Below the pieces are notes generated by a model. The model worked only from the letters and a program-made list of their open reading frames with translations. It did not search any database and had not been told where the DNA came from. 64,000 nt of DNA from Dokdonia sp. (lineage in GTDB: Bacteria > Bacteroidota > Bacteroidia > Flavobacteriales > Flavobacteriaceae). Positions 5,395 through 45,621 of this stretch are shown here, piece by piece (position 1 is the first letter of the stretch; every line of letters starts with the position of its first letter). The stretch spans positions 30,210 to 94,209 of the forward strand of contig JAHDIF010000010.1 in the NCBI GenBank assembly GCA_020630915.1. Direction: 5' to 3'. The translations under genes were made by a program, and so were the position numbers.

Positions 5395-5408
5395 GCTTTC
5401 GCGAAAGC
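5395..5408. repeat. Iterated palindrome, intergenic
   Basis: Exact GCTTTCGCGAAAGC. Confidence 0.95.
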
Positions 5409-8607: not shown

Positions 8608-9108
8608 TTACCCTTCAATATGCGGTATACGCAATACTTGACCAGGATAAATCTTATCTGGATCTGTGAGCATAGGCTTATTTGCCTCAAAAATAATAGG
8701 GTATTTCATGGCATCTCCATACATTGCTTTTGCAATTTTACTTAGGTAATCTCCTTTTTCTACAGTATAAAAGCGAGCTTCTGGCTCAGTATGTTCAACT
8801 TCCATACGATCGTCTACTGCAGCTATACCGGAGGTATTCCCTACGACTAGGCGTATTTTTTCTCGGTTGGATTGATCATAAGCACGTCCAGAAACAGTTG
8901 CTGTATCTCCTTCTATAGCAATATGTAAATCTTCTACCTTTAAGCCTAGATCGTGTATTGTTTCAGACATACTGGCTGCTGCTTTTGCATTTGCCTCTCT
9001 TACCGCTGCACTTGCTGCCGCTGCTGCTTCTGCCGCTTCTTCTTCTTCTGTCTTTCCGATTCCAAAAACTTTGGCACCTGCGTTTTTAATAAATGAAAAT
9101 AATCCCAT
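8608..9108 (-). CDS. lysM: BON-LysM peptidoglycan-binding protein (YgaU/Kbp-like)
   Basis: MGLFSFIKNAG start, BON-like middle, LysM YTVEKGDYLSKIAK...IYPGQVLRIP. Confidence 0.9.
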   Translation of the reverse strand: MGLFSFIKNAGAKVFGIGKTEEEEAAEAAAAASAAVREANAKAAASMSETIHDLGLKVEDLHIAIEGDTATVSGRAYDQSNREKIRLVVGNTSGIAAVDDRMEVEHTEPEARFYTVEKGDYLSKIAKAMYGDAMKYPIIFEANKPMLTDPDKIYPGQVLRIPHIEG

Positions 9109-9175: not shown

Positions 9176-9189
9176 GTTTTCGCGAAAGC
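9176..9189. repeat. Iterated palindrome, 1-mismatch variant (GTTTTCGCGAAAGC)
   Basis: 13/14 match, intergenic. Confidence 0.75.
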
Positions 9190-10414: not shown

Positions 10415-10428
10415 GCTTTCGCGAAAGC
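10415..10428. repeat. Iterated palindrome, intergenic; extends to 22 bp (10411-10432)
   Basis: ttatgctttcgcgaaagcataa. Confidence 0.95.
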
Positions 10429-14298: not shown

Positions 14299-14312
14299 GC
14301 TTTCGCGAAAGC
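14299..14312. repeat. Iterated palindrome, intergenic
   Basis: Exact match. Confidence 0.95.
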
Positions 14313-14318
14313 ATACTA

Positions 14319-14675
14319 CTACGCAATCAATTCTTTTTCTATAAAATATTGTACAATAGCATCCTTCATAAGGATTTGTTGTTCTCCTGCCTTTAAAGCA
14401 GGGAGCGGTTCTAGCATTTTATAATGGGGCCAGCCATCAGGGTCTTCAAAATCGAATTGATAATACCCAAAAGGCTCCAATAATCGGCATATTGCAATAT
14501 GCATTAAATTTACTTTATCATCTTTTTTGAAGGGTCTATTGAGCTGTCCTAATTCTTGTAGTCCTATAAGGTAAATAATACTATCAAGATCTAGGGTGTC
14601 GCCCTCCGCAAAGCGTTCTGATAGTTTTGCAACTACTGCTTCCCATCGTTCTTTAAGTTGTTCATCCCTTGCCAT
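14319..14675 (-). CDS. Conserved hypothetical protein
   Basis: Start reassigned to MARDEQLKERW at 14675, preceded by TATCTTTGTCCT. Confidence 0.75.
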   Translation of the reverse strand: MARDEQLKERWEAVVAKLSERFAEGDTLDLDSIIYLIGLQELGQLNRPFKKDDKVNLMHIAICRLLEPFGYYQFDFEDPDGWPHYKMLEPLPALKAGEQQILMKDAIVQYFIEKELIA

Positions 14676-14679
14676 AGGA

Positions 14680-14687
14680 CAAAGATA
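14680..14687 (-). promoter_or_regulatory. -7 element TATCTTTG 4 nt before the ATG at 14675
   Basis: Identical 15-mer to the yicC start region. Confidence 0.6.
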
Positions 14688-14793
14688 CCTCCTTTTTAAG
14701 GGATTAGGGTAGTAAGGGAGTAGTTGAATAGTTGAACCATTGAAAGAAATTAATAAAATAGAGGTAAAGATTTTATTTGTCTTGTCTAGTAAT

Positions 14794-14853
14794 TTCAAGT
14801 TCAAGTAGAAGTTCGATTTTGATTTCTATTTCTATTTCGATTTCGATTTCAAA
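14794..14853. repeat. Degenerate hexamer tandem array (10 units: TTCAAG/TTCGAT/TTCTAT)
   Basis: 6-nt periodicity read directly. Confidence 0.75.
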
Positions 14854-18108: not shown

Positions 18109-18882
18109 TTAAAAATCCTGTAATAATTTGATGTCTTCAGAAGGCAACCATCCCGTTTTCCCATCAATCAGTTGGATACGGTTCCAGTTGTTAACCTCTT
18201 CTAAGACCTGCACTTTTGTGCCTTCATGTAGCTTAAACGCAAGTGTGCTAGCAAGTGACGGCTCACTTTTTACTTCTGTTTCGGTAGCAAAAACAATGGC
18301 GGGGTTGTCGTTTTCTGCTTTCGCGAAAGCGCTATACGCAAAACTCAAACTAGCAATCGCTAGCAATAAACTCAAGGACGCAAGAGTAAAGAAGACTCTT
18401 TTCTTACCTGTACCGTAGCCAAAATAATAGCCTAGAAAGGCCAAAACAAACAGGATAACGAACACAATCGCGGTGATAGCCCATCCATCTACCGTGAGAA
18501 AAGTGATGGCCTTATTAATCCATCTCTTTACGGCATTTACAGGCATTGTCTCGATGGCATCTATCTTCATATTCTCTGCAAAGGCAGCATTGTTGCGTAT
18601 CTGACTGTCTGATGGGTCTAGTTGCAACGCCTTCTCGTAGTAAAAAACCGTTGGACCTATATTATTGAGTTTGTAGTTTGCATTTGCTAGGTTATAATAT
18701 AAAGCAGCGCTTTCTTGGTTTAAATCCAACACGCGCTTGTATGCGTCGATCGCTTCTTGATATCTACCTTGTGCATAATGATCGTTGCCTATTTTAAAAA
18801 TGGCCTCTGTATTTTGAGACCAGGCGATACTTGCGGTGAGCAGTATCCATAAAAAACTGTATGTTTTGAGTATTTTAACCAT
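18109..18882 (-). CDS. batE: BatE: TPR plus SH3 domain protein
   Basis: TPRs, TM pair, C-terminal LHEGTKV...GWLP; last gene of the bat operon. Confidence 0.9.
   Translation of the reverse strand: MVKILKTYSFLWILLTASIAWSQNTEAIFKIGNDHYAQGRYQEAIDAYKRVLDLNQESAALYYNLANANYKLNNIGPTVFYYEKALQLDPSDSQIRNNAAFAENMKIDAIETMPVNAVKRWINKAITFLTVDGWAITAIVFVILFVLAFLGYYFGYGTGKKRVFFTLASLSLLLAIASLSFAYSAFAKAENDNPAIVFATETEVKSEPSLASTLAFKLHEGTKVQVLEEVNNWNRIQLIDGKTGWLPSEDIKLLQDF
18317..18330. repeat. Iterated palindrome in batE (AFAKA)
   Basis: Exact match. Confidence 0.95.
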
Positions 18883-18883
18883 C

Positions 18884-20659
18884 TTACAGCTGTTTATCTA
18901 TCGTTGAAATTATACGTACGGCCTTATCATAATCTTGTTGCATGGCTACATCACTTGATGGTGTATAACGTGCAAACTCGCAACTTTCAAGTAGCCCTAT
19001 AAACTCTATAGCCGTTTGTTCTTGCACGTCTTTCTCTTTGAGCAGCCTAGAGATACGATCTTTACTCATATCACTTGTTTGGATATTGAGTTTTGCTTTG
19101 AGGTAATTGTGCAATGCACGTTCCATAGCAATGTAAAACTCTTTTTGATTACCAAGATTTTTCTTTGCGGTACTTAAAAACTTTCTGGCGAGTTTATCTG
19201 CTTTGCGTATTCTATTTCCTTGTACGTCATTTGAGACATTCTCCTTGCGTCTTCTTACAAGCATTGCGATAGGGATGAGTAAAAGAGGACCTCCCAAGAA
19301 TGCCCAGAATTTTGAAGACTGGAAGAAAGGCGTCTTTTTAGTACTTACAAGATTCCCTTCTGATTTGATGTATTGAAATTGCTTGTCTGCAGCAATGACT
19401 TGTTGTTTATTGCCCGCGTTTACCGTATTGTTGTTTGTTGCTGCAGTAGCATCTACAGGTCCGTTTAGAACTTCTACTACAATCTCGTCTGATGTTCCTC
19501 TTTCGTAACGTTCTGTTTTAGGGTTAAAGTAGCTAAACGATATAGCCGGTATGGGATACTTTCCTTTGTATTGAGGAACGACCGTATACTTATTGCGCTT
19601 AAGACCACTCATTCCGGAAAGATTGGTACGTACTTTATCTTGATTTTCTGGTTCGTACACTTCAAGTTTTCCTGGGAACTTAGGTCTAGGCAGATCAAAA
19701 AGTTTGAGGTTTCCATTTCCTTTGGCTTCTACACTTATTTCAAAAGCTTCCGTTGCGTCCAGTTGCTGCTTGTTTGTGTTTACTTCAAAATCAAAATCTC
19801 CCACGGCTCCGGTAAAATCGTCTGGTTTGCCATCTGTAGGTAGAGGTTTTACATTAATGGTTCTGTTTTTTGCAGCTACTGTAATATTTGCATTTCGCGT
19901 TAAGCGTCTCCCAAAAATATCACGTTTATTCGTAGGTACATCTACGGTAACACTTAGACTTAAGGGCTCTATATTAAGTTTTCCCGATTTAAGAGGATAC
20001 AGTACAGTACGTCTTAAGATGACATAACGGTAAGGCTCTCCTTTATACTCCCCATTATACACCTTAAATTGTTTCTCATCTACACTTTGGCTCCAGAAAT
20101 CCTCATACTTGGGGGAGTCTATCTCCCGCCAGTTGCTCACGCTAGTCTGTTCTGCAACGTATAACTTATATACTACAGTAAATGCTTCATTTATGTATGG
20201 ACTTCCCTTAGAAATCTCCGCTACAAGATGGATGTTTTCTGATGCTTGATAAAGGGCATTTGATCCATCTCCTGGTTTATCTACAGCCGCTGTTACTTCT
20301 ACCTCTACGGGAGTGGTTTTATAGGTCTCACCATTTACAGTGATTTCTGCCTGTTCTATGGTGAATTTACCTCTTTTCGTAGGTGCGAGAAAATAACTGT
20401 AGGTTTTAGAAAAACTACTTTTCCCGTTTACCCATTGCCTGCTTACCGATTGATTAGGACCTCCCGTAACAGTAAAACCACTAAAGCTAGGCGGATTGAA
20501 ATTATCGCCATCTTGATTCATTACAAAATCAATACGCAGGCGCTCATTAATGCCTAGTTTTTTACGATTTACTTTGGCATTAAACGACACATCGTCTTGT
20601 CCCCACACTGTGGTGACAGTAAGTAAAAGTATAGCGAGTATGTGTACTACTTGTTTCAT
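18884..20659 (-). CDS. batD: BatD family protein
   Basis: Repeated Ig-like BatD domains, AVGDF motif, C-terminal TM; start at ATG 20659. Confidence 0.9.
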   Translation of the reverse strand: MKQVVHILAILLLTVTTVWGQDDVSFNAKVNRKKLGINERLRIDFVMNQDGDNFNPPSFSGFTVTGGPNQSVSRQWVNGKSSFSKTYSYFLAPTKRGKFTIEQAEITVNGETYKTTPVEVEVTAAVDKPGDGSNALYQASENIHLVAEISKGSPYINEAFTVVYKLYVAEQTSVSNWREIDSPKYEDFWSQSVDEKQFKVYNGEYKGEPYRYVILRRTVLYPLKSGKLNIEPLSLSVTVDVPTNKRDIFGRRLTRNANITVAAKNRTINVKPLPTDGKPDDFTGAVGDFDFEVNTNKQQLDATEAFEISVEAKGNGNLKLFDLPRPKFPGKLEVYEPENQDKVRTNLSGMSGLKRNKYTVVPQYKGKYPIPAISFSYFNPKTERYERGTSDEIVVEVLNGPVDATAATNNNTVNAGNKQQVIAADKQFQYIKSEGNLVSTKKTPFFQSSKFWAFLGGPLLLIPIAMLVRRRKENVSNDVQGNRIRKADKLARKFLSTAKKNLGNQKEFYIAMERALHNYLKAKLNIQTSDMSKDRISRLLKEKDVQEQTAIEFIGLLESCEFARYTPSSDVAMQQDYDKAVRIISTIDKQL

Positions 20660-20673
20660 GCGTTGTTGCGAAT

Positions 20674-21564
20674 TTACCAATCTTTTTCTGTCTTCACTTT
20701 TGCACCCTTTTGCTTACGGGCATTAATTTTTTCTTGTGTTTTTTGTTCTTCATTACGCATGGCCTCTAGCAAGTTCTTTATTTGTTGCGGAGTTAATTGT
20801 CCTTGTTGAGGTTGTGGCTGCTGCGGTTTTTTCTCTTTTTCTTCTCCTTGGTCTCCTGGCTGTTCCTTTTCTTTCTCTTGTTCTTTTCCATCCTCGTCTT
20901 CTTTCTTTTCGCCGTCTTCTTCTTTTTCTTCACCTTTATCATCTGTCTCCTCTTCCTCTCCGTCTTCTCCTTCTTTTTTATCGCCGTCGCCGTCCTTGTT
21001 TTCTTCGTTTTTCTCCTTTTCTTGATTCTGGTCTTGGTCTTCTTTTTCTTGATCATCATCTCCGCCACCGCCACCGCCGCCGTTTTTTTCTTCTTCTTTT
21101 TTGGCTAGAGCAAGATTATATCGTGTTTCTTCGTCCGTAGGGTCGTTGCGCAAGGCATTTTTATAAGCTTCTACCGCTGCGCCAAAGTCTTCTTTTTGAT
21201 AATAGGCGTTGCCTAAGTTATGAAAAGCTTTGTGTCTTTCTTTTTTAGTTGTTGCAACTTGTGCAGCCTTTAAATGTGAAGAGATACTTTCTTCATATTT
21301 CTCTTTAGTATAGTAGTTATTTCCAGCATTATACTTAGCAGGTACACTGGCAGGATCAAGACCTATCGCTTGACGGTAGGAGGATTCTGCTTTCGCGAAA
21401 GCGTCTTCACTCGCATACTCATTTCCATCTATCACCAGATTACGTGCCTCTTCTGCATACGGATTTTCTGGTCCTTTTTTCTTTTTTTGCGCTACTGCCG
21501 AAAATGAAACTAACAGCAGGGCAACTCCTACTATGTAATATGTTCTGTTATTAGTTTTCATCAA
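20674..21564 (-). CDS. batC: BatC: TPR protein with acidic/Gln-rich low-complexity linker
   Basis: YNAGN and HNLGN TPRs, ALRNDPTDEETRYNLA, ends KTEKDW. Confidence 0.9.
   Translation of the reverse strand: MMKTNNRTYYIVGVALLLVSFSAVAQKKKKGPENPYAEEARNLVIDGNEYASEDAFAKAESSYRQAIGLDPASVPAKYNAGNNYYTKEKYEESISSHLKAAQVATTKKERHKAFHNLGNAYYQKEDFGAAVEAYKNALRNDPTDEETRYNLALAKKEEEKNGGGGGGGDDDQEKEDQDQNQEKEKNEENKDGDGDKKEGEDGEEEETDDKGEEKEEDGEKKEDEDGKEQEKEKEQPGDQGEEKEKKPQQPQPQQGQLTPQQIKNLLEAMRNEEQKTQEKINARKQKGAKVKTEKDW
21389..21402. repeat. Iterated palindrome in batC (AFAKA)
   Basis: Exact match. Confidence 0.95.
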
Positions 21565-22585
21565 ACAAATTCATTTTTTTAAGCCATCCCGTCTTACGAT
21601 CCAACAGGAAAATATCTAAAAACAACAGGAAAATTCCCGCTGCAAGAAACCATTGAAACTGGTCTTTAAAGTCAGCAAATTGCTTAGCCTCAAATTCCTT
21701 TTTGTCCATATTATTAAGGAGGTCTTGTACTTTTTCTAGCACCTCTGCGGTGTTTTTACCGTAGATATACTCTCCGTTTGCCTCTGCGGCAATCTCTTTG
21801 AGGGTGTTTTCATCTAGCTTGGTAATTACCGTCTCACCATTTTGATCTTTTTTATAAGACTGGATAATGCCGTTGCGTTTAAGAGGGATAGGACCTCCAT
21901 TTGCGTCTCCTACACCTATGGTAAAAATTTTAATCCCTTCTTCTTTTGCCTGCTCTGCAATACTGACAGCTTCTCCTACGTGGTCTTCACCGTCTGATAT
22001 GATAAAGAGCACTCTATTGGTTTGCTCCTCGTCGTTGTAATAGGTTTTTGCTAATTCTATGGCTTCTCTAATGGCCGTTCCCTGGCTCGAAAGCATATCT
22101 GTATTCATCTGGCTCAAGAATAGCTTAGCACTACTATAGTCTGTTGTGATAGGCAGCTGGGGATAGGCACTTCCCGCGTAGGCAATAATCCCTATACGGT
22201 CGCTCCCAAGATTATTAATAATTTGAGTGACAAGTTGCTTTGATTTCTCAATCCTATTAGGCGCTATGTCTTCTGCAAGCATACTTTTAGAAACGTCTAT
22301 GGCAAAGACAAGGTCAACACCCTCACGTTTTACGGTTTCTAGTTTTGTTCCCATTTTTGGATTTACAAGTGCGATCACTAAAAATAGAATAGCACCACAA
22401 AGCACGATTATTTTGAGTGCTCCTTTAAAAATGGAACTGTCTGGACTAAGTTTGCGCAGTAAAGCGGTATTGGCAAATCGTTTTTGAGCACGTTTTTGCC
22501 AAAACAGCAACAACCCATACATCACCAGTAATGCTGGGATGATGAGGAGTAACCAAAACCATATTTTTTCTTCTAATAGATACAT
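21551..22585 (-). CDS. batB: BatB: VWA domain protein
   Basis: MIDAS DVSKSM, DRIGIIAYAG, ISDGEDH. Confidence 0.92.
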   Translation of the reverse strand: MYLLEEKIWFWLLLIIPALLVMYGLLLFWQKRAQKRFANTALLRKLSPDSSIFKGALKIIVLCGAILFLVIALVNPKMGTKLETVKREGVDLVFAIDVSKSMLAEDIAPNRIEKSKQLVTQIINNLGSDRIGIIAYAGSAYPQLPITTDYSSAKLFLSQMNTDMLSSQGTAIREAIELAKTYYNDEEQTNRVLFIISDGEDHVGEAVSIAEQAKEEGIKIFTIGVGDANGGPIPLKRNGIIQSYKKDQNGETVITKLDENTLKEIAAEANGEYIYGKNTAEVLEKVQDLLNNMDKKEFEAKQFADFKDQFQWFLAAGIFLLFLDIFLLDRKTGWLKKMNLFDEN

Positions 22586-22591
22586 AGGGTT

Positions 22592-22605
22592 GCTTTCGCG
22601 AAAGC
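22592..22605. repeat. Iterated palindrome filling most of the batA-batB spacer
   Basis: Exact match in a 27-nt spacer. Confidence 0.95.
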
Positions 22606-22612
22606 GTATTTT

Positions 22613-23617
22613 TTAAACAAAACTTCTAAAAAGTGTAAACCGAAGAATCAGTTCTAATAGTAAAAGAGCGCCTGCTAATAGGATAAGCGGACGATACTTT
22701 TCTTCATAATTAGTGTATTTAAACTCTTCTACTTCGGTCTTTTCTAGTTTGTCTATTTCGTCATAAATTTCTTTTAATTTCTTATTGTTTGTAGCTCTAA
22801 AATATTTGCCACCTGTTACTTGTGCAATTTCTTTAAGCAGGTCTTCGTCGATAGTCACTTTTACATTATCGTAAACAAAACTTTTATTTGCGTTTACAGC
22901 CACAGGTGATAATGCCATACCATTTGTTCCTACACCAATAGTATAGGTTTTAATGCCAAATTCTAAGGCTAGTTCACTGGCAATTTTAGGATCAATAAAG
23001 CCAGCGTTGTTTTCTCCATCGGTCATTAAAATAATAACTTTACTTTGTGCTTTGCTATCCTTTAATCTGTTTACAGAGGTAGAAAGCCCCATCCCAATAG
23101 CAGTACCTCCTTCTATAATATTATTATAACGTATACTTTTAAGCGAGCTTAACACTATGGTTTTGTCACTGGTGATAGGCGTTTTTGTATAACTCTCACC
23201 GGCATACTCTACAAGACCGATACGATCGTTAGGGCGTCCTTTTATAAAATCTGCGGCTACTTTTTTGAGAGCTTCCAGTCTGTTAGGGCGCAGGTCTTTT
23301 GCCAGCATACTAGCAGAAACATCTATGGCGATTACAATGTCAATACCTCGTGTGCTTTTAGTGCGTGTAGATACATCTACCGTGCGAGGTCTAGCCATTG
23401 CTGTAATGAGTGCTGCTAGTGCCAATAATCGAAGAATAAACAAGAAGGGTTTAAGCTTGGGTAAAAAACTTGATCCAGCTTTAAATCCTTTGATACTCGA
23501 AATCTTTACAGAGGCATTTTGCTTTCGATACTTCCAGAGATACCACGCTAGTGCAACTGGAAGCCCTAGGAACAACCAGAAAAACTGCGGATTTGAAAAT
23601 TCGAAATTATCTAACAT
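22613..23617 (-). CDS. batA: BatA: VWA domain protein
   Basis: DVSASM, DRIGLV, GTAIGMGL, LMTDGENN. Confidence 0.92.
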   Translation of the reverse strand: MLDNFEFSNPQFFWLFLGLPVALAWYLWKYRKQNASVKISSIKGFKAGSSFLPKLKPFLFILRLLALAALITAMARPRTVDVSTRTKSTRGIDIVIAIDVSASMLAKDLRPNRLEALKKVAADFIKGRPNDRIGLVEYAGESYTKTPITSDKTIVLSSLKSIRYNNIIEGGTAIGMGLSTSVNRLKDSKAQSKVIILMTDGENNAGFIDPKIASELALEFGIKTYTIGVGTNGMALSPVAVNANKSFVYDNVKVTIDEDLLKEIAQVTGGKYFRATNNKKLKEIYDEIDKLEKTEVEEFKYTNYEEKYRPLILLAGALLLLELILRFTLFRSFV

Positions 23618-25299
23618 TATTTTTCGTCATTATTTTTTGTAAAATCAATACTGTTAATGACTCGCTCCGCAATTTTTTTGCTGTATGGATCGTCATCTTT
23701 CCAACTTATAAAAAGTTGAAAGTATCTATTGTCTTTTGCTTGAAAAGTGATAAGTGCATATTCCCCACTTGTCTTAGTTCCTTTTTCTTTATCTATAATC
23801 TGGGTGCCTGTTCCAAAAACCTTGAGACCAGCAATACCATTTAAAGTTTTGAATTCTTCTTCCTTAGTTAACCCTGCATTAAAGCCTTGGGCTTCAAACT
23901 GCGCTAGTTGACCTGTAATTAGTTGGGGAGCAGTAATTTCTAAAGATTTGTCTATTTTAAATTCAAAAACAGCAATGGTAACATTGGGTGGTGTTGTGGC
24001 CCAAGCAAATGCAGTGGTTTCTACTTTTCCTTTTATTTCTTCTGGAATAGGCGTATTTTGTCTTTCTAGTGCCTTTGGAGTACTTACTATCATTCCCGGA
24101 GCTCCATACTCACTGGTAATCCATTGTCCTTCGGCTAGTTCTCTGGTCGCGTTTCCTAGCACAAAGTCTTTTACCTCACTAAATCCTTTGATGGCAATAC
24201 CAATTCCTAAAGCCAGCACAAGGATTCCTAAAACTCCACCAGCTCCTGTGAGCCATAATTTGCGTTTACGACGACGTTCTATAGCCATACGATACATTTC
24301 GTCTCGCATGAGTTCTTCTTCGGTTGGAGCAGGTAGTACTTCTTTGGTTTGCTTTACAATTTGCTCAATAGCAATACGATCTGCAAGCGCTTTCCCTTCT
24401 GGCGGATTGATACGTGCAAACTTTACGAGATCTGCTCGTTGGAAAATGTCTTTTAAATTTTTAATAGTCTCAGGACTAAAATCTATATGACCGCTTTCTC
24501 TTTCGGCTTGTAGTCTATTTATAAGTTCTTCTGTAGTACTTTCTAGTGCCCGATCATACACCTTCTCGTCATAATACCTACGTATGGCGTCTGTAAGGGT
24601 GGTGTAATAGGCCTTGTATTGAGAATTTTCGATAAGGCCACTATCATCTAATGATTTTAAGGTAGCAAGTGCTTGCTCGAATGGTGGTATGTAACGTTCT
24701 TCTTCCTTCTTTTTCTTGTGCCTACGTAATAACCAGTATAAAAATAAGCCAATAGCCAGTGCTAGAGGTATCACCCAAGCAAGTATCTGTAACAGTAATT
24801 TTCCATAGTTTTTAGGAATTTCTATAGCAGGTTTAATGTCGTAAAGACCTTGGTTTACGGTATCTAAAACCACGTTTGCTACTTCTACTTTAAAAGAATC
24901 TGTCTCGATGGTTTGCGTCCCTACAATAATGCGTTGTCTGGGTATTTTATAAGACCCACTGTCAAACTGGGTAAGCCCGTATTTTTTAACGAGCGTCATT
25001 TTATAGTTGCCTTTGCTGTTGGGCGCTTTCGCGAAAGCGGTATCCACTTTATAACTCTCAATCACTTCCAGAGGAGAAAACGTCTGCCCTTCTGGAAAAA
25101 CTACAGTCGCGGTTTGATCTACCTCTGCAGTTACGGTGTATTTTATCTCTTCACCAATGCGTATGGAAGTAGTATCCACGGCCGTTGTAACCACAGGATC
25201 TGCTTGTGCTAGCCCTTGTTGTATGCAGCATAACACAAGAAGTGTCACTACCCAAAGGATAGATGTGTGTGCGGCGCTATGTGTATGTCTAGGGGTCAT
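23617..25299 (-). CDS. Bat-operon membrane protein (BatD-like N-terminus, DUF4381-like, extended C-terminus)
   Basis: 560 aa between DUF58 and batA; signal peptide, TM segments, FARINP motif. Confidence 0.7.
   Translation of the reverse strand: MTPRHTHSAAHTSILWVVTLLVLCCIQQGLAQADPVVTTAVDTTSIRIGEEIKYTVTAEVDQTATVVFPEGQTFSPLEVIESYKVDTAFAKAPNSKGNYKMTLVKKYGLTQFDSGSYKIPRQRIIVGTQTIETDSFKVEVANVVLDTVNQGLYDIKPAIEIPKNYGKLLLQILAWVIPLALAIGLFLYWLLRRHKKKKEEERYIPPFEQALATLKSLDDSGLIENSQYKAYYTTLTDAIRRYYDEKVYDRALESTTEELINRLQAERESGHIDFSPETIKNLKDIFQRADLVKFARINPPEGKALADRIAIEQIVKQTKEVLPAPTEEELMRDEMYRMAIERRRKRKLWLTGAGGVLGILVLALGIGIAIKGFSEVKDFVLGNATRELAEGQWITSEYGAPGMIVSTPKALERQNTPIPEEIKGKVETTAFAWATTPPNVTIAVFEFKIDKSLEITAPQLITGQLAQFEAQGFNAGLTKEEEFKTLNGIAGLKVFGTGTQIIDKEKGTKTSGEYALITFQAKDNRYFQLFISWKDDDPYSKKIAERVINSIDFTKNNDEK
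25025..25038. repeat. Iterated palindrome in CDS (AFAKA)
   Basis: Exact match, 16 bp with flanks. Confidence 0.95.
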
Positions 25300-25303
25300 T
25301 GGG

Positions 25304-26170
25304 TTATCCTCTTCGTTTAAAATAGCCTAATAATTTTTTGACATAGCTTTCATCTGTACGAACGTTTATGACTCCAGAACCACTGCGTTTAAAGGTCTCC
25401 TCATAATAATCTACACGCTCTTTGTAATGCGACTCATAATTGCGACGTATCTTTTTTGATGAGGTATTGATAAGTCGTAGCTCGCCGGTTTCTTCATCTT
25501 CCATTTGTACCATTCCTAGACTCGGGATGGATTGTTCACGCTCGTCGTATATGCGTACTCCAGTAATGTCATGTTTATTTGCTGCGATTTTTAAGGTTTG
25601 CTCATAATCTTCGGCAATAAAATCAGATAGGATGAAGGTGATAGCTTTCTTTTTCATCACACTACTTAAAAATTTGATCGCTTGTGCAATGTCTGTTTTC
25701 TTGGATTTGGGTTTAAACTCAAGTAGCTCGCGTATGATGCGTAACACGTGGGATTTTCCTTTTTTAGGAGGAATGTAGAGTTCTACTTCGTCCGTAAATA
25801 AGATGAGTCCTATTTTGTCATTGTTCTGCATCGCACTAAAGGCGAGTGTTGCAGCTACTTCGGTTACAATCTCGTTTTTGAATTGTTTGTCTGTTCCAAA
25901 AAATTCAGATCCGGAAACATCTGCCACAAGCATCATAGTAAGCTCTCGCTCTTCTTCAAAAACTTTAATGTAAGGCTCGTTATAGCGTGCGGTTACATTC
26001 CAGTCTATATTGCGCACATCATCCCCAAACTGATACTGGCGTACTTCAGAAAAAGTCATACCACGCCCTTTAAAGGTAGAGTGGTATTCTCCCCCAAAAA
26101 TGTGATCAGACAACCTACGTGTCTTGATCTCAATCTTGCGTACTTTTTTAAGAAGTTCTTTAGTATCCAT
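25304..26170 (-). CDS. DUF58 domain protein
   Basis: GRGMTFSEVRQYQFGDDVRNIDWNVTAR, VADVSGS. Confidence 0.93.
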   Translation of the reverse strand: MDTKELLKKVRKIEIKTRRLSDHIFGGEYHSTFKGRGMTFSEVRQYQFGDDVRNIDWNVTARYNEPYIKVFEEERELTMMLVADVSGSEFFGTDKQFKNEIVTEVAATLAFSAMQNNDKIGLILFTDEVELYIPPKKGKSHVLRIIRELLEFKPKSKKTDIAQAIKFLSSVMKKKAITFILSDFIAEDYEQTLKIAANKHDITGVRIYDEREQSIPSLGMVQMEDEETGELRLINTSSKKIRRNYESHYKERVDYYEETFKRSGSGVINVRTDESYVKKLLGYFKRRG

Positions 26171-26174
26171 AATT

Positions 26175-26259
26175 CGATTGGAGATTTTTGATTGGGGATT
26201 AACGATTGGAGATCTATAGTTCTTACATCAACAATCTTAATTCTTCAATCTTCAATCCT
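26175..26259. repeat. Inverted pair of degenerate heptamer arrays (nGATTnn x6, then CAATCTT-type x4)
   Basis: 7-nt periodicity in the moxR-DUF58 spacer. Confidence 0.7.
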
Positions 26260-27262
26260 ACGGTACTTCGATTTGATTTACAATCTTATTGATAATGTCT
26301 TCTGAGGTTACATTCTCTGCTTCTGCTTCGTAGGTGATCCCAATGCGGTGACGTAAGATGTCGTGTACTACGGCTCGCACGTCTTCTGGGATTACATATC
26401 CTCTTCGCTTTATAAATGCATAACATTTTGCAGCAGTGGCAAGGTTAATACTACCACGAGGAGAAGCACCAAAATTAATAAGTGGCTTAAGCTCCGCCAG
26501 TTTATAATTTTCTGGATAACGTGTCGCAAAAATGATATCAAGGATGTATTTCTCAATTTTCTCATCCATATAGACTTCTTGTACGGCTGCTTGAGCACGT
26601 AGTATTTGCTCTACGGTTACTACGGGATTAACTTTTTCAAAGCCTCCTTTAAGATTTTGGCGTATAATTAATTGCTCATCTTCAATTTTAGGGTAGTCTA
26701 TTACCGTTTTAAGCATAAAACGGTCTACTTGTGCTTCTGGAAGTGGGTACGTTCCTTCTTGCTCTACTGGATTTTGTGTTGCCATTACTAAGAAAGGCTT
26801 ATCCAAAATAAAGGTTTCATCACCTATGGTTACTTGCTTTTCTTGCATCGCTTCTAGGAGTGCACTCTGCACTTTTGCCGGAGCACGGTTAATCTCATCG
26901 GCGAGCACAAAATTTGCAAAAATGGGGCCTTTCTTGATACTAAAATCATTTTCCTTCATATTGTAGATGAGTGTACCCACAACATCTGCTGGAAGCAAAT
27001 CTGGTGTAAACTGTATACGACTAAAAGATCCTTTTACAGCTTGAGAAAGTGTGTTAATTGCAAGTGTTTTTGCCAGTCCAGGAACTCCTTCTAGTAAAAT
27101 ATGACCCCTTCCCAAAAGTCCAATAAGCAATCGCTCTACCATATGCTTCTGGCCTACAATCACTTTATTCATCTCCATAGTGAGAATATCTATAAATGCA
27201 CTCTCACGCTCGATCTTTTCATTAATCGCACCTATATCTATTGCTGTCGTATTTTCTTCCAT
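26258..27262 (-). CDS. moxR: MoxR family AAA+ ATPase
   Basis: GVPGLAKT, RIQFTPDLLPAD, LADEINRAPAKVQSALLEAM; start at MEENTT. Confidence 0.95.
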   Translation of the reverse strand: MEENTTAIDIGAINEKIERESAFIDILTMEMNKVIVGQKHMVERLLIGLLGRGHILLEGVPGLAKTLAINTLSQAVKGSFSRIQFTPDLLPADVVGTLIYNMKENDFSIKKGPIFANFVLADEINRAPAKVQSALLEAMQEKQVTIGDETFILDKPFLVMATQNPVEQEGTYPLPEAQVDRFMLKTVIDYPKIEDEQLIIRQNLKGGFEKVNPVVTVEQILRAQAAVQEVYMDEKIEKYILDIIFATRYPENYKLAELKPLINFGASPRGSINLATAAKCYAFIKRRGYVIPEDVRAVVHDILRHRIGITYEAEAENVTSEDIINKIVNQIEVP

Positions 27263-27423
27263 AAATTCTATTTTAGATTTTGGGATTTTAAAACGTTGCA
27301 AAGTGGGGTTTTATTACCAAAATCCTTGTTAACAATTGGTTAAAAATTCTTTTAAATAAAGGGCTTCCCGAGCGAAATCCTATCTTGGGATCACCTATTT
27401 TTAATAAGAACGCAAAATAAAAA

Positions 27424-28296
27424 ATGGAGATAAAATATTCAAGAATTATTCAAGGGTGCATGACCTGGGGTAAATGGGGTAAGCAACTCAGTACAAATCA
27501 GATGATTGATTTAATGAATCACTGTCTGGATCAGGGAATTACCACCTTTGATCATGCTGATATTTATGGAGATTATAGTACGGAAGAAGATTTTGGGTAC
27601 GCTTTCGCGAAAGCAAACATAGCTCGAGAATCTATACAACTCATCTCAAAATGTGGCATCCAGTATATGGGTGAAGCGAGGCCAGAACTCAAAGTAAAAC
27701 ATTATCAATACGACGCAGATTACATTGTCTGGAGCGCTGAAAGATCCCTTAGATTATTGCAAACCGAATATCTAGATCTGTTTCTACTCCATAGGCCCAG
27801 CCCATTAATGGAAGCGGCAGAAGTAGCTAAGGCGTTTGAACAATTACGATTGCAAGGAAAGGTGCGCACCTTTGGTGTATCTAACTTTACATCTTCTCAG
27901 ATAGATCTTATTAAAAGCGCGGCAGAGGTAAGCGCAAATCAAGTTGAGTTTAGTCTAACCCAGCACAGTGCGATGCACGACGGAAGTTTAGATCATATGA
28001 AAATTAATAACGTACGAGCGATGAGTTGGAGTCCTCTAGGAAGTGTGTTTCGTGAAGATACAGAGCAAACGCAACGCATTAAAAAAGCGCTAGTACCGCT
28101 TTGTGAAAAATACAATGCTACACAAGATCAACTGTTGCTTGCTTGGATTTTAACCCACCCTTCTGCAGTACATCCTGTTATTGGGACAACCAGTCCAGCT
28201 AGAATAACAAATGCAGCAAAAGCAGTAGCTATTGAGCTGGATAAAGAAGATTGGTTCCTCTTGCTGGTGGCGAGTCAAGGGCATAAAGTGCCTTAA
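27424..28296 (+). CDS. Aldo/keto reductase (YdhF-like)
   Basis: TTFDHADIYG, LISKCG, LLHRPSP, FGVSNF, WSPLG. Confidence 0.92.
   Translation: MEIKYSRIIQGCMTWGKWGKQLSTNQMIDLMNHCLDQGITTFDHADIYGDYSTEEDFGYAFAKANIARESIQLISKCGIQYMGEARPELKVKHYQYDADYIVWSAERSLRLLQTEYLDLFLLHRPSPLMEAAEVAKAFEQLRLQGKVRTFGVSNFTSSQIDLIKSAAEVSANQVEFSLTQHSAMHDGSLDHMKINNVRAMSWSPLGSVFREDTEQTQRIKKALVPLCEKYNATQDQLLLAWILTHPSAVHPVIGTTSPARITNAAKAVAIELDKEDWFLLLVASQGHKVP
27601..27614. repeat. Iterated palindrome in the AKR gene (AFAKA)
   Basis: Exact match. Confidence 0.95.
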
Positions 28297-28328
28297 TACA
28301 GGCACCTTATGTACTAATAGTCTTTAGT

Positions 28329-29159
28329 TTACTCTAGGTTAATGGTGCCTAGATCTGTAGTTTCTTCGTTTGTAACAGAGACATCTTCTATTACAGCGTT
28401 TTCTAAATTTGCATCAGGATCTGCTTCTATAAGCACCGTATACGTCCCAGTAGGGAGACCAGATAATAAAAATTCTCCAGCGTCATTTGTGTAAGTAGAT
28501 ATCTCTACTGTAGCATTATTAGCTGTCACTACTACTTGAGGTCCAAGAGGAGTAACAGTTCCAATAATTTGTCCACTATCTGTTGATAAAGAAGCTCGTA
28601 TTGTAGGCTTCAGTAAATAATTGCCATTTCCTTGTGCAACGATAGATCGCTCTACATCAAAATCCAGAAGGAATTCATATAGAACATCATTTTCTAATGT
28701 CTGGTTAAGCTGTATTTTTAAACCACTTTGTTGCGCACTGGGGGTGGCTAGTGGAAGAGAGACACCATCTACAACAACGGTGTTTTCTTCTCCTAGTATT
28801 AGTCTTATTTGGCTTATATCGCCAGCAGGAATTTCATCGTCGGATAATAGTACAGAGACACCTCCTGTAAGTTCTAAAAGATTATAGATCCCGGCATTAA
28901 AGTTGTCAAGTACAACGGTATTGTTATCATCATTGTCATTGTCATTGTCATCATTGTCGTCGTTGTCATCGTCATTGTTATTATATTTGAGCTCAATACT
29001 TTGGACATCTATATTAACCTCGTCATAATCTCCTGGAGCATCCGTTAGTCTAACGGCAATTCGAGATTCACCATTCACTTCATTGTTTTCATCGTTATCA
29101 CAGGATAGTACGGTAATCGTACAAAAAAGCAACACAACTATTTTTAATATGTTTTTCAT
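28329..29159 (-). CDS. DUF4382 domain lipoprotein with carboxypeptidase-regulatory-like C-terminal domain
   Basis: Lipobox VLSC, VRLTDAPG, SAQQSGLKI, LDFDVERS. Confidence 0.85.
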   Translation of the reverse strand: MKNILKIVVLLFCTITVLSCDNDENNEVNGESRIAVRLTDAPGDYDEVNIDVQSIELKYNNNDDDNDDNDDNDNDNDDNNTVVLDNFNAGIYNLLELTGGVSVLLSDDEIPAGDISQIRLILGEENTVVVDGVSLPLATPSAQQSGLKIQLNQTLENDVLYEFLLDFDVERSIVAQGNGNYLLKPTIRASLSTDSGQIIGTVTPLGPQVVVTANNATVEISTYTNDAGEFLLSGLPTGTYTVLIEADPDANLENAVIEDVSVTNEETTDLGTINLE

Positions 29160-29292
29160 AAATAAATATTTCTAATTAAAGTATTCATATAAAAGTTCTT
29201 GATATTTATACGTTCAATAGTAAATAACAGATCTTTTACTCCAAATATAAACGGTTTTTTATTGAACATAGTATTGACTTTAAAATGTACAA

Positions 29293-30051
29293 ATGGATAC
29301 GCATACAATAGCACTAATAACGGGAGCCACTAGCGGTATAGGGAAAGCCACTGCCATACGATTTGCAAATGAAGGAATTAACCTTGTTTTATGCGGTCGC
29401 AGGCAGGATAGACTGGATGCACTTAAAGACAGCCTAGGAGAAAGAGTGACTATTTATACACTCAACTTTGACATAAGAGATAAGGACAACGTTCAAACTG
29501 CTATCGCTAGTTTGCCAGAGGCCTTCTCACAAATAGACATTCTTATCAATAATGCAGGCAATGCACATGGATTAGATCCTATACAAACTGGAAGTACAGA
29601 CGATTGGGACGCCATGTTAGATATTAATGTAAAGGGATTGTTATATGTAAGTAAAGCAATAATTCCTCAAATGACAGCCCGTAAAAGTGGGCACATCATA
29701 AACATAGGCTCTACTGCTGGTAAAGAAGTATACCCTAATGGCAATGTGTATTGCGCCAGCAAGCACGCAGTAGACGCTATCAACCAAGGAATGCGCATTG
29801 ATTTAAACAAGCATAACATACGTGTAGGAGCTGTTAATCCGGGGATGGTGCATACAGAGTTTAGCGAAGTGCGATTTAAAGGTGATACAGAGAGAGCAGA
29901 TAAAGTCTACCAAGGTTTTGATGTTCTTAAACCAGAAGACATTGCAGACATTATTCACTTTGTAGTTTCCAGACCGTATCACGTAAACATCGCAGATCTT
30001 GTGGTGATGAGTACCGCGCAAGCTTCTTCTACCATTATTAACAAGAGTTAA
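29293..30051 (+). CDS. SDR family NAD(P)-dependent oxidoreductase (YdfG-like)
   Basis: TGATSGIG, NNAG, YCASK catalytic motif. Confidence 0.93.
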   Translation: MDTHTIALITGATSGIGKATAIRFANEGINLVLCGRRQDRLDALKDSLGERVTIYTLNFDIRDKDNVQTAIASLPEAFSQIDILINNAGNAHGLDPIQTGSTDDWDAMLDINVKGLLYVSKAIIPQMTARKSGHIINIGSTAGKEVYPNGNVYCASKHAVDAINQGMRIDLNKHNIRVGAVNPGMVHTEFSEVRFKGDTERADKVYQGFDVLKPEDIADIIHFVVSRPYHVNIADLVVMSTAQASSTIINKS

Positions 30052-30058
30052 GCTGCTA

Positions 30059-31195
30059 ATGATCAACAAACGCCTTTTAATTAAAAATCTACTCGCGCAT
30101 AACGACGAGAACAGTTTTTATGACAAAAAGCGTAAAATTGATATAGGAAGCAAAGAAGGAAAGGCCAAATTTTTAAAACACATTTGCGCACTTTCTAATT
30201 CTAACCCTAAGAATAATTCGTACATCGTTATTGGAGTAGATGATAGTGACAACGCGATTGTAGGCGTGCCTTTTTTTGACGATAGTAAATTGCAAAATCT
30301 GGTGAATGCCTATCTAGAGAATCCCCCTATTATCTCTTATGAAAATATCCCGTTTCCTAGCCTTCCAGAGGATAAGGTAGTGGGTCTTGTGACCATACGC
30401 GCTCAAGACAAACTTACGGCTCTAAAGCGCAATATCTGGAAATACTGGGGAGGCACCGTATTCTTTAGAGATGGCAGTATCTCGATGCCCAAGGTCTTTA
30501 AAAGTGATGTAGAAGACGTAAACAGTGAGATCGTAGCTGCTATAGAAACCCACGCTCGCAATAGCATAGAACTTACGTTGGACGGAGTGATGGATTTTGT
30601 AAACGAGCGTCATAAAGATATGGAGAGTCAGTACAAGGTCTTTAAAGAGCAGTTTGTATTATGCTGGGCAGGGCATAAAAAAGTGATTAAGGGCAGCACC
30701 TATTACTCACGAGTAGATATAGAATTGATTAATGAGCAAGTGCGTCTTTTTTACAGTGCGCTTGATGAGGTGAGTATCGAGTACGATGATGATTGCTTTT
30801 CTATCCTTGAGTATGTACATCTTGGAGTACAAGAACAGTTCAAATATTACCCTTTAGAGGAGGTGGTGATACGCTTTCGCGAAAGCGGAACCTATACTAT
30901 TGACACCACGCTAGTGTTTGATCCACCGCGGTTTGATAAAAAGGTCCTGCATCATATTTTTAATAATAACAATGTGATTTTTTACAAGTTAAAGAGAGGC
31001 ATTCCTCTTAACCAAGGCGAGCATAAAGACTTGCACCAGCTTCCTAACACGTATTTGATTTGTTATCTTAACGGTTTTGATACCGCCATCCAGAAACTGG
31101 AGGAAGTAAAACCACTATTAAAGAAATACAAAGGCGGCATTTATAATCGTTACAAAGAGACCATGCGTATCTTGCGTAAAGTAAAATATGAATAG
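30059..31195 (+). CDS. AlbA_2/Schlafen-like domain protein (often labelled ATP-binding protein)
   Basis: N-terminal ENSFYDKK...FLKHICALSNS...YIVIGVDD pattern. Confidence 0.7.
   Translation: MINKRLLIKNLLAHNDENSFYDKKRKIDIGSKEGKAKFLKHICALSNSNPKNNSYIVIGVDDSDNAIVGVPFFDDSKLQNLVNAYLENPPIISYENIPFPSLPEDKVVGLVTIRAQDKLTALKRNIWKYWGGTVFFRDGSISMPKVFKSDVEDVNSEIVAAIETHARNSIELTLDGVMDFVNERHKDMESQYKVFKEQFVLCWAGHKKVIKGSTYYSRVDIELINEQVRLFYSALDEVSIEYDDDCFSILEYVHLGVQEQFKYYPLEEVVIRFRESGTYTIDTTLVFDPPRFDKKVLHHIFNNNNVIFYKLKRGIPLNQGEHKDLHQLPNTYLICYLNGFDTAIQKLEEVKPLLKKYKGGIYNRYKETMRILRKVKYE
30873..30886. repeat. Iterated palindrome in CDS (RFRES frame)
   Basis: Exact match. Confidence 0.95.
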
Positions 31196-31244
31196 AGGGG
31201 TTGTTTTTATATAGTCGAAATGCTTGTCGTCACGATGTAATTAA

Positions 31245-31285
31245 GGCGATCGAGTATTTTTAAAAAGTAAAAATGTATCGAGACC
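31245..31285 (+). repeat. About 41-nt repeat element (GGYGATYGAGT...AAATGTATCGARAYC), copy 1
   Basis: Shares both ends with the reverse complement of 32183-32225. Confidence 0.55.
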
Positions 31286-31308
31286 CCGATATGATGAAAT
31301 ATGAATAA

Positions 31309-32058
31309 ATGAGTAGAACATTAGTTATAGGCGATTTACACGGAGGTTTAAAAGGATTAGAACAGGTAATGGAGCGTGCTCAGATTGCGGCGAATGATCA
31401 TCTGATATTTTTAGGAGATTATGTAGATGGATGGAGTGATAGTGCGGCAACGGTAAGTTTTTTAATCGCGCTTTCGCGAAAGCAAAAGTGTACCTTTATA
31501 AGAGGTAATCACGACGATCTTGTTCATCAATTTCTCTTGGGTAAAGAGATGAGTGAGAATTGGATAATTCATGGTGGTCAGAGTTCTAAAGAGGGCTATG
31601 CTTTGCTTTGTGCCGAAGAAAAGAAGCAACACATCCGTTTTTATGAAAAGCTTCATGATTACCACATAGACAGTGATAACCGAATCTTCTGTCACGCGGG
31701 CTTCCAGAATCAAAATGGCCCAGAAGCAGAGTGGTATAGCACAGCTTTTTATTGGGATCGCACCTTATGGGAGATGGTATGTGCCATGGATACTAATCTC
31801 AAGCCTGGAGACTTACATTATCCTAAACGACTCTCACTATTTTCTGAAATATACATAGGCCACACACCCGTAACAAAAATAGGTGCGACGACTCCCGTAC
31901 AAAGAGCAAACGTTTGGAATATAGATACGGGTGCAGCGTTTATGGGTCCAGTTACTATTTTAGATGTGGAGACTAAGAAGTACTGGCAAAGTACACCAGT
32001 TTGGCAATTGTATCCAGATGAGGTAGGAAGGAATCAGAGGTCTTATCAAGATTCTTAA
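31309..32058 (+). CDS. Calcineurin-like metallophosphoesterase (PrpA/ApaH-like)
   Basis: GDLHG, GDYVD, RGNHD, HAG and GHTP motifs. Confidence 0.92.
   Translation: MSRTLVIGDLHGGLKGLEQVMERAQIAANDHLIFLGDYVDGWSDSAATVSFLIALSRKQKCTFIRGNHDDLVHQFLLGKEMSENWIIHGGQSSKEGYALLCAEEKKQHIRFYEKLHDYHIDSDNRIFCHAGFQNQNGPEAEWYSTAFYWDRTLWEMVCAMDTNLKPGDLHYPKRLSLFSEIYIGHTPVTKIGATTPVQRANVWNIDTGAAFMGPVTILDVETKKYWQSTPVWQLYPDEVGRNQRSYQDS
31470..31483. repeat. Iterated palindrome in CDS (LSRK frame)
   Basis: Exact match. Confidence 0.95.
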
Positions 32059-37076: not shown

Positions 37077-37090
37077 GCTTTCGCGAAAGC
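37077..37090. repeat. Iterated palindrome, intergenic, with extended imperfect arms (ggtta...taacc)
   Basis: Exact core. Confidence 0.95.
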
Positions 37091-41730: not shown

Positions 41731-41744
41731 GCTTTCGCGAAAGC
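41731..41744. repeat. Iterated palindrome, intergenic
   Basis: Exact match 10 nt past the nbaC stop. Confidence 0.95.
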
Positions 41745-45607: not shown

Positions 45608-45621
45608 GCTTTCGCGAAAGC
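45608..45621. repeat. Iterated palindrome in a divergent promoter region
   Basis: Exact match. Confidence 0.95.

Follow-up and report, generated by a model that had tools for sequence, protein, structure and literature searches.

A genus-specific, hyper-abundant palindromic DNA word in Dokdonia, probably maintained at the DNA level and translated within unrelated proteins

The perfect 14-base palindrome GCTTTCGCGAAAGC is present in 19 exact copies across the window, that is, the whole 64-kb stretch of DNA from Dokdonia sp. (Flavobacteriaceae; contig JAHDIF010000010.1) analysed here. We regard it as probable that this is a genus-specific, hyper-abundant DNA word that a protein recognises and that selection or drive keeps exact at the DNA level, and that the peptides read from it inside genes are by-products. 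With independent and identically distributed bases, only 1e-4 copies are expected per window, which corresponds to a ~1.9e5-fold over-representation, and none of 100 dinucleotide-preserving shuffles of the window held any copy.

The copies were mapped onto the open reading frames (ORFs) of the window and translated, and the host genes were assigned to Pfam families. Nine of the 19 copies are coding and ten are non-coding; the latter share the 9% of the window that is non-coding (91% is coding), an enrichment with P = 1.5e-6. A first-pass annotation, made from the sequence alone, had listed nine exact coding copies, seven read as AFAKA, one as RFRES and one as LSRK, in named genes, and all of them were recovered by ORF mapping and Pfam; the host proteins are mutually unrelated. 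It had also placed six coding copies within a 13-kb stretch (18317-31483), which was confirmed (18317, 21389, 25025, 27601, 30873 and 31470), with the addition of a seventh copy, intergenic and previously uncounted, at 22592. As it had noted, and as is directly visible in the sequence, the motif is free of stop codons in every frame and both strands read alike. The copies at 10415 and 56312 lie inside mechanically listed ORFs, yet they are non-coding after correction of the starts, which were set (~10321 and 56346, respectively) from orthologue alignment and a signal-peptide-like N-terminus.

Moreover, the copies are evenly spaced: the coefficient of variation of the local spacing is 0.52, compared with 0.95 under random placement (P = 0.0014), and nowhere are neighbouring copies more than 7 kb apart. 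Over unique coding sites, the frames AFAKA, xFRES and LSRK are used in a ratio of 11:2:4 (P = 0.02); the xFRES and LSRK frames require the rare codons CGC, CGA and TCG. As a separate observation on placement, four of the seven copies located downstream of a gene (14299, 22592, 41731 and 49302) are found 3-9 nucleotides (nt) past its stop codon (P = 0.009 under uniform placement), and none of the four resembles a terminator.

The same word was found in every Dokdonia examined. A scan of contigs with the 560-aa protein encoded in the window as query gave 23 syntenic loci, here denoted, like the other contigs, by L numbers. The Dokdonia sample contains 76 exact copies in 278,748 nt (~1 per 3.7 kb) and consists of 13 loci, namely the window and twelve others from MED134, D. 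donghaensis, D. sinensis, Hel_I_53, Asnod3-C12 and several metagenome-assembled genomes. No exact copy was found in the 387,211 nt of 21 outgroup loci, including Aureisphaera, Patiriisocius, Aquimarina, Halomarinibacterium and the nearest outgroup, 49% identical in the 560-aa protein; in the same 21 loci there was no other over-represented palindrome. Homologues of this protein assign the window to a Dokdonia-like lineage, the identity being 81% for the nearest relative and 55-63% for the named Dokdonia species. One word is common to all Dokdonia sampled, with a sharp boundary at the genus. The window organism and close strains are present in algal, plant-associated and marine metagenomes.

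The cause of this abundance acts on DNA and not on the peptide. All seven AFAKA peptides of the window are encoded by GCT-TTC-GCG-AAA, where TTC represents 16% of the Phe codons and GCG 13% of the Ala codons of the window; the chance of this codon set is 0.004 per peptide and 2e-17 for all seven. Orthologous coding copies are exactly identical in 20 of 30 comparisons vs 2.9 expected from frame-matched control 14-mers of the same genes, in genomes that are ~50% identical at third codon positions; taken singly, each distant genome keeps 33-100% of the copies vs 3-6% expected. The orthologous sites lacking the motif differ at two positions at least, synonymous ones included, as is the case for GCTTTttCcAAAGC and GCTTTtGCtAAAtC in L001. 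The first-pass annotation had proposed a count of the three peptides; on the sampled loci, in ORFs of at least 100 residues, 108,357 Dokdonia residues contain AFAKA, FRES and LSRK 42, 24 and 13 times, vs 0, 0 and 3 occurrences in 165,659 residues from outgroups. The uniform AFAKA codons, the exact 14-mers kept across ~50% third-position identity and the 42 vs 0 AFAKA counts place the constraint on DNA, and with them its suggestion of a DNA-level process reshaping the proteome was borne out.

To ask how the copies came to lie inside genes, a protein-guided alignment was made of all six genes of the 13-kb stretch in the syntenic loci, and the remaining coding copies were compared with orthologues or with homologues of solved structure. 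The motif is ungapped in all nine coding copies, each of which replaces 2-4 residues with the length unchanged. Orthologues without the motif read TFHKA, TYTDF or NFGKQ at the site in the batE-like gene; NFVDA, NFPDA or KFVKG in the batC-like gene; AFAES, AFSES or ALAAS in the aldo/keto reductase; and TFHEN, NFKEN or TFREN in the AlbA_2/DUF5929 protein. The orthologues of the 560-aa protein read SFAQA, SFAEA or TYEQA (SFADA/TYEQA in outgroups and SFAEA/SFAQA/ASSTSA in other Dokdonia), and the outgroup phosphoesterases FSKK, FSKE or FSEK. In the PhrB-type photolyase, AFAKA aligns ungapped to HYQTR (7ykn) and EYAQR (9hnk), and in the GFO/IDH/MocA oxidoreductase to ASGRE (3v5n) and EFGVQ (7d5m). 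The site in the third photolyase varies within the genus (AFAKA, AFAKG, AFAEA, AFANN, AYANN), the outgroups having RFCKN, again without gaps. The ungapped alignment of all nine copies, together with the different peptides in motif-free genomes, argues that the coding copies arose by in-place nucleotide substitution and not by insertion in nine cases out of nine. The first-pass annotation had favoured the same origin over insertion of the Rickettsia type; the peptides of repeat-free orthologues differ in all nine genes, and no coding copy is a clean insertion.

Gains of copies are visible within the genus. The phosphoesterase copy is a lineage-specific gain, the window reading ALSRKQ and other Dokdonia ELKQKQ, TLSEVQ or ELQKSN (5-9 mismatches), and MED134 has gained a copy read as ALSRKR where other Dokdonia have AIERRR or AIERKR (7-10 of the 14 positions differ); in both cases the length is unchanged. 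With outgroup sequences as a proxy for the ancestral state, motif sites carry 4-13 mismatches out of 14, on average 7.2 vs a background of 10.3-10.8, and five of six genes have them among the top 0.3-5% of frame-matched positions. The low outgroup mismatch and the high ranking indicate that the motif settles where the gene already most resembled it, with starting sequences that were nonetheless 4-10 changes off. Of the earlier proposal that near-matching codons are replaced, the preference for the best matches holds in five of the six genes, but the outgroups differ at 4-13 positions and not at one or two. No one-mismatch intermediate was found at orthologous sites, in genomes that are saturated at synonymous sites, so that stepwise and single-patch gain look alike.

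Loss of the word can be seen in the low-GC genome L026 (GCA_947503305.1, 35% GC), in which three sites (1846, 7684 and 10262) read GCTTTtGC[t/a]AAAGC. The changes hit both central CpGs, and two of the sites, both coding (aldo/keto reductase and 560-aa protein), still encode AFAKA as a fossil peptide; one site is itself a perfect variant palindrome, GCTTTTGCAAAAGC. The peptide being kept while the word decayed, the constraint relaxed in this genome was on DNA.

The 14-mer lies at the centre of a longer, 16-bp dyad, YGCTTTCGCGAAAGCR, and weaker flanks, TTAC...GTAA, bring this to 16-22 bp. The dyad is extended by the bases at -1 and +1, which are Y and R, respectively, in 46 of 48 copies; the 22-mer with its flanks is TTACGCTTTCGCGAAAGCGTAA, and beyond this weak extension the flanks are not conserved. 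Over-representation begins at the 8-10-mer core, TTCGCGAA having 21 copies vs 0.8 expected. A length of 16-22 bp matches the footprint of a dimeric protein and exceeds a typical methyltransferase or restriction site. The Dokdonia sample contains only two one-mismatch and 12 two-mismatch variants vs 76 exact copies, and the large one-mismatch population expected at a mutation-drive equilibrium is absent from it. Most two-mismatch copies keep TTTCGCGAAA and differ at an outer GC, and three-mismatch words have the same density in Dokdonia and in outgroups. Half-sites as independent units were considered and rejected, as orphan half-sites occur at about chance level; avoidance or enrichment of a restriction site was rejected as well, TCGCGA being found outside the motif 8 times vs 8.3 expected. 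On the side of the variants, two-mismatch copies that retain GCTTTCGCGAAA and lack the final GC are shared by divergent genomes, both in an M20 peptidase gene (L148 13370 and L150 13603, IFRES) and in the batE-like gene (L027 16946 and L153 17038, AFAKIS). The 12-mer with one outer GC missing may still be under constraint.

The individual copies are listed in Table 1. At 18317 the word is exact in L024, L001, L025 and L026, L151 has a copy at the matching position, and MED134 (L027) reads GCTTTCGCGAAAat, a two-mismatch word that is identical in L153. The site at 21389 reads GCTTTttCcAAAGC (AFSKA) in L001. That at 27601 is exact in L024, L001, L002, L025 and L027, with copies at the matching position in L151 and L153, and reads GCTTTtGCaAAAGC in L026. 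The site at 30873 is exact in L002, L025, L026 and L027, and the one at 60146 is exact in D. sinensis, with ALAQA in L148 and EFATV in L150. The place of the non-coding copy at 56312 also holds a copy in D. sinensis (L149). In L148, the orthologue (5700-5760) of window positions 56290-56346, upstream of the epimerase gene, shows a rearranged GCGTTCGCGAAAC...ATCGCGAAGCGTAA, which looks like a damaged or duplicated copy. As to the gene context of the last copies, positions 57751-62219 hold three consecutive genes of the photolyase/cryptochrome family, an arrangement kept in other Dokdonia loci. The first is, judging from synteny with L148-L150, a DNA_photolyase/FAD_binding_7 gene; the next, of the PhrB type (DPRP), encodes a protein with ~50% identity to the FeS-BCP (6-4) photolyase 7ykn; and the last is again a FAD_binding_7 gene.

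Table 1. Copies of the palindrome, near-copies and associated insertions in the window
Position	Type	Reading (residues)	Context
1658..1671	exact, coding	AFAKA (48-52)	GFO/IDH/MocA oxidoreductase gene 1517..2650 (+)
2688..2701	exact, intergenic		37 nt past stop of 1517..2650
5395..5408	exact, intergenic		between 4996..5331 and 5483..6346
9176..9189	one-mismatch copy GtTTTCGCGAAAGC, the sole one in the window		between listed ORFs 8608..9108 and 9356..
10415..10428	exact, divergent intergenic		~94 nt upstream of likely start (10321, MKTMKLLSVFALAA) of gene ending 9356
14299..14312	exact, intergenic		6 nt past stop of 14319..14804 (-)
18317..18330	exact, coding	AFAKA (185-189)	batE-like TPR+SH3 gene 18109..18882 (-)
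21389..21402	exact, coding	AFAKA (55-59)	batC-like TPR gene 20674..21564 (-)
22592..22605	exact, intergenic		27-nt spacer between BatA-like gene (22613..23617) and BatB-like gene (21551..22585)
25003..25023 (-)	21-nt insertion (7 codons)	PNSKGNY	starts one base past the 25025 palindrome
25025..25038	exact, coding	AFAKA (88-92)	560-aa bat-operon gene 23617..25299 (-)
27601..27614	exact, coding	AFAKA (60-64)	aldo/keto reductase gene 27424..28296 (+)
30873..30886	exact, coding	RFRES (272-276)	AlbA_2/DUF5929 gene 30059..31195 (+)
31470..31483	exact, coding	LSRK (55-58)	metallophosphoesterase gene 31309..32058 (+)
37077..37090	exact, intergenic, not terminator-like		between 35889..37019 and 37129..38241
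41731..41744	exact, intergenic		9 nt past stop of 41754..42293 (-)
45608..45621	exact, divergent intergenic		between 45075..45539 (-) and 45671..48022 (+)
49302..49315	exact, convergent spacer		3 nt past stop of 48489..49298; separate terminator-like hairpin at 49362-49389
56312..56325	exact, non-coding		20 nt before the corrected start (56346), epimerase gene
59487..59524	split copy		PhrB-type photolyase gene: GCTTTCGCGAAA 59487-59498, 24-nt insertion 59499-59522, GC 59523-59524
60146..60159	exact, coding	AFAKA	PhrB-type (DPRP) photolyase gene 59222..60706 (+)
61050..61063	exact, coding	AFAKA (104-108)	third photolyase gene 60741..62219 (+)

Some copies are accompanied by small insertions. 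The copy at 22592 is intact in the window strain, L001, L025 and L026; in close strains (runs X4 and X5; ~99% identical, about 1-3 single-nucleotide polymorphisms per 300 nt relative to the window) it is split after its ninth base, as GCTTTCGCG^CCTGCCTGCCGGCAGGCAGG^AAAGC, and L024 (91% identical; 7014-7049) has the same insert with two extra T. The insert is a perfect GC-rich palindrome of 20-22 nt, CCTGCC(TT)TGCCGGCAGGCAGG, and the pattern implies either recurrent insertion at this site or precise loss. At 59487, what appeared to be a two-mismatch copy is an exact copy cut between its 12th and 13th bases by an in-frame insertion of 24 nt (8 codons), and the orthologous site in L148 and L150 holds an exact, uninterrupted RFRES copy. 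The 21-nt PNSKGNY insertion is found in the window and L024 and not in L025, L002, L001 and L003, and L026 (near 10276) has a different, unrelated-looking 21-nt insertion (SNESQNR) at the same position. In a census of indels of at least three codons, 6 of 20 events fell within two codons of a motif edge, which 1.1% of codons would be expected to do. Two of the six (the batC-like gene in L151 and the third photolyase vs L150) were dropped as ambiguous on nucleotide alignment; two solid coding events of ~16 remain, for which our own binomial estimate is P ~0.015, and the intergenic event is additional. Taken together, these events are suggestive of a clustering of 20-24-nt indels at the copies, which may be prone to breakage or slippage.

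The sequence of the insert found at 22592 also occurs elsewhere. The exact 20-mer CCTGCCTGCCGGCAGGCAGG is present in at least 120 metagenome contigs (L154-L273), whose GC content ranges between 29% and 71%; most sites are intergenic (ORFs hold 10 of 94, vs 52% of random positions), its flanks are not symmetric, and it also occurs within tRNA-like D-arm sequences (L226 and L232). It could be a convergent terminator-like GC-rich stem or a tiny widespread element. The idea that it targets the centres of existing hairpins was unsupported, flank complementarity being 3.17 vs 3.09 in controls.

Mobile DNA was considered as well. Among the matches listed in a scan of viral contigs, most had single copies, at chance level, and L081, which resembles a flavobacterial siphophage, was multi-copy, with three copies (4210, 7851 and 10955) in 11.3 kb and a Dokdonia-like GC content of 35.8%. 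One of these lies in a protease gene and is read as VRFRESE; the contig has PHROG matches to a head maturation protease and an endolysin, and one of its proteins shares 44% identity with a Cellulophaga phage Ingeline protein. The 42.6-kb genome of Cellulophaga phage Ingeline_1, whose host genus is without the motif, contains no copy. The three copies in L081 vs none in Ingeline_1 indicate that the imprint of the motif follows the host clade even in phage-type DNA, assuming that L081 comes from a Dokdonia-like host.

How could such a pattern be produced? In the mechanism that we favour, a protein with sequence specificity, probably a dimer, would read the word in duplex DNA. Copies arise by in-place nucleotide substitution at pre-existing resemblances to the motif and then stay frozen, synonymous positions included. 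Within genes, 2-4 residues are overwritten and, the motif being free of stops in every frame, the outcome is AFAKA (the preferred frame), xFRES or LSRK, none of these peptides being a target of selection. If the DNA word is indeed maintained, its role, judged by analogy with known systems, may tentatively be that of a self-DNA tag for DNA uptake or recombination; a site for a chromosome-organising or nucleoid protein is an only slightly less likely candidate, a by-product of methylation-linked biased repair would seem unlikely, and what is left would fall to some other role.

On the other hand, several points weigh against this reading. The Dokdonia sample amounts to only ~280 kb from two syntenic regions, the spacing test is based on 18 intervals only, and the comparisons across genomes are phylogenetically non-independent. 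Orthologous conservation could also stem from continual repair back to the motif and not from a selected function. The ratio of 76 exact to two one-mismatch copies, far sharper than that of uptake sequences, weakens the version based on uptake drive. Finally, the cellular role is argued by analogy only, as no binding protein, methyltransferase or competence phenotype has been identified.

A live rival, although we consider it unlikely, is that the word is the neutral by-product of sequence-biased repair or methylation, along the lines of the model that Elhai proposed for HIP1 (highly iterated palindrome 1), with near-matches being corrected to a functionless motif. This would fit the near absence of one-mismatch copies, as if they were quickly corrected, the presence of the motif in phage-type DNA of Dokdonia-like GC content, and the changes on the two central CpGs in L026, where one site has the symmetric TG/CA pattern of cytosine deamination; moreover, the deviants, mostly keeping TTTCGCGAAA and varying at the outer GC, resemble the outer-position bias of HIP1 as described in PMC4390886. 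However, even spacing and adjacency to stop codons are not predicted by biased repair, new copies appeared at sites 5-10 changes away, which is beyond a correction of the very-short-patch type, TCGCGA is neither enriched nor depleted outside the motif (8 vs 8.3), and a methyltransferase was not identified.

Gains 5-10 changes away without intermediates would instead be explained, together with the scarcity of one-mismatch copies, the copies in phage-type DNA and the 20-24-nt insertions, if a Dokdonia-specific enzyme system (a nuclease or recombinase with sequence specificity, or an uptake/recombination apparatus) wrote and restored the word in patches, in a manner similar to gene conversion. 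We judge this improbable; if true, it would amount to a drive, found in nature, that rewrites DNA at targeted sites, the editing of proteins being a side effect.

Considerably less likely is a function as RNA hairpin, either terminator, processing site or mRNA stabiliser. The four of seven gene-downstream copies within 9 nt of a stop codon (P = 0.009) would agree with it, as would the 22-mer with consensus flanks, which folds at -7.3 kcal/mol as DNA; but the 14-mer alone reaches only -2.1 kcal/mol, which does not surpass shuffles, the copies are not followed by a T-run, a terminator scan flagged none of the four copies tested (36-50 kb), and the copy at 49302 has a separate canonical terminator beside it. 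A hairpin or terminator role was rejected on these grounds. An Rfam scan of the window matched no family. About half of the copies are inside genes and three are in divergent promoter regions, and, while a structure would allow compensatory changes, the sequence is invariant.

We find it hard to credit a small mobile palindromic element inserting in frame, such as the Rickettsia palindromic elements (RPEs), miniature inverted-repeat transposable elements (MITEs) or repetitive extragenic palindromes (REPs). High copy number, palindromic form, intergenic enrichment and the 20-24-nt indels at or inside some copies recall such elements; for the coding copies this explanation is contradicted by the unchanged length at the motif in all nine, and, in addition, the motif is merely 14 bp, its flanks are conserved only as a weak dyad extension, and half-sites alone are near chance level. 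Lastly, selection for AFAKA, FRES or LSRK as a functional protein motif can be practically discarded: even if AFAKA is helix-friendly and the commonest frame, one DNA word yields three unrelated peptides in unrelated proteins, half of the copies are non-coding, the same minor codons in every AFAKA (P = 2e-17) already contradict it, and L026 keeps the peptide although its DNA word has decayed.

A maintained, protein-recognised DNA word remains our preferred interpretation, and it has consequences beyond Dokdonia. To our knowledge HIP1, a puzzle for about thirty years, is known only from cyanobacteria. An independent system in a second phylum would help to separate general from cyanobacterium-specific explanations, the candidates being selection on a DNA word, a tag for uptake or recombination, chromosome architecture, or methylation-linked repair. 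It would also have practical advantages, the word being longer and much sharper than HIP1, with a clean on/off distribution at the genus level and culturable hosts (Dokdonia sp. MED134 and D. donghaensis); given this boundary, it is straightforward to seek the responsible protein by phylogenetic profiling. This is a very clear case of a DNA constraint rewriting proteins, in which the peptide outlives the decayed motif, and the motif could be a source of bias when Dokdonia genomes are aligned, searched for motifs or analysed for codon usage.

Among known palindromic repeats, RPEs measure roughly 100-150 bp and, by inserting in frame, add residues to the host protein. They share with GCTTTCGCGAAAGC the presence of a repeated palindrome translated inside unrelated proteins, but in Dokdonia the length is constant at the motif and residues are replaced, not added. 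REPs are imperfect, longer and strictly extragenic, and REPs, bacterial interspersed mosaic elements (BIMEs) and REPINs are mobilised by REP-associated tyrosine transposases (RAYTs). REP/BIME and REPINs resemble GCTTTCGCGAAAGC in being short, abundant palindromes enriched between genes; unlike REPs and MITEs, 9 of the 19 copies described here are coding, all of them are exact, and their flanks are not conserved.

The uptake signal sequences (USS) of Pasteurellaceae and the DNA uptake sequences (DUS) of Neisseriaceae are words of a clade, present at kilobase density and evenly spaced, which originate by substitution, are tolerated in particular frames and in less constrained protein parts, and are enriched downstream of genes, properties that are said to have been described by Smith in 1995, Karlin in 1996, Redfield in 2006, Findlay and Redfield in 2009 and Frye in 2013. 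USS and DUS are also asymmetric and have many one-mismatch relatives. Features of the same kind in GCTTTCGCGAAAGC are a genus-level word, kilobase-scale density, even spacing and an origin by point substitution, as well as the tolerance in particular frames and less constrained parts of proteins and the enrichment just downstream of genes; unlike USS and DUS, it is a perfect palindrome with almost no one-mismatch relatives. Such exactness is sharper than that of either HIP1 or the uptake sequences. It may be added that some Flavobacteriales are naturally competent and that Riemerella columbina favours its own DNA (PMC7965970).

The closest likeness is to HIP1 (GCGATCGC, from cyanobacteria) and the alternate HIPs. 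HIP1, as described in PMC5861425 and PMC4390886, and GCTTTCGCGAAAGC are both hyper-abundant perfect palindromes found in coding (all frames) and non-coding DNA, with an origin by substitution, orthologous conservation beyond expectation, a non-random distribution and deviants at the outer positions. The same sources describe HIP1 as conserved beyond the codon-level expectation and non-randomly distributed on the chromosome, with deviants at outer positions, and together with a preprint (bioRxiv 10.1101/2024.09.10.611283) they recently link it to transformation and recombination. Typical of HIP1-type palindromes are also a periodic arrangement on the chromosome, with periods of 10-90 kb, and an orphan methyltransferase specific for an internal core; for GCTTTCGCGAAAGC, the local spacing over 64 kb is more regular than chance would give, and TCGCGA outside the motif is as frequent as expected. 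The first-pass annotation had likened the motif to HIP1 and DUS rather than to RPEs; over-representation, placement in all contexts, conservation and substitution origin match this view, and sequence and phylum differ. Indeed, GCTTTCGCGAAAGC has a Bacteroidota host (Dokdonia, Flavobacteriaceae), another sequence and a length of 14-16 bp vs 8 bp; its over-representation is ~1e5-fold vs 15-300-fold for HIP1, at a lower density of about 1 per 3.5 kb. Unlike HIP1, it is a single identical word genus-wide, with a sharp boundary, far rarer near-variants and no known cognate methyltransferase, and, owing to its length, a coding copy fixes 4-5 residues. No description of the motif, by sequence or by topic, was found in the literature searched, which misses most subscription journals. 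By sequence, phylum or symmetry, GCTTTCGCGAAAGC is outside the HIP1 and uptake-sequence families; by analogy, it may be regarded as a Bacteroidota counterpart of both, and would be the first highly iterated genomic word that we are aware of in this phylum.

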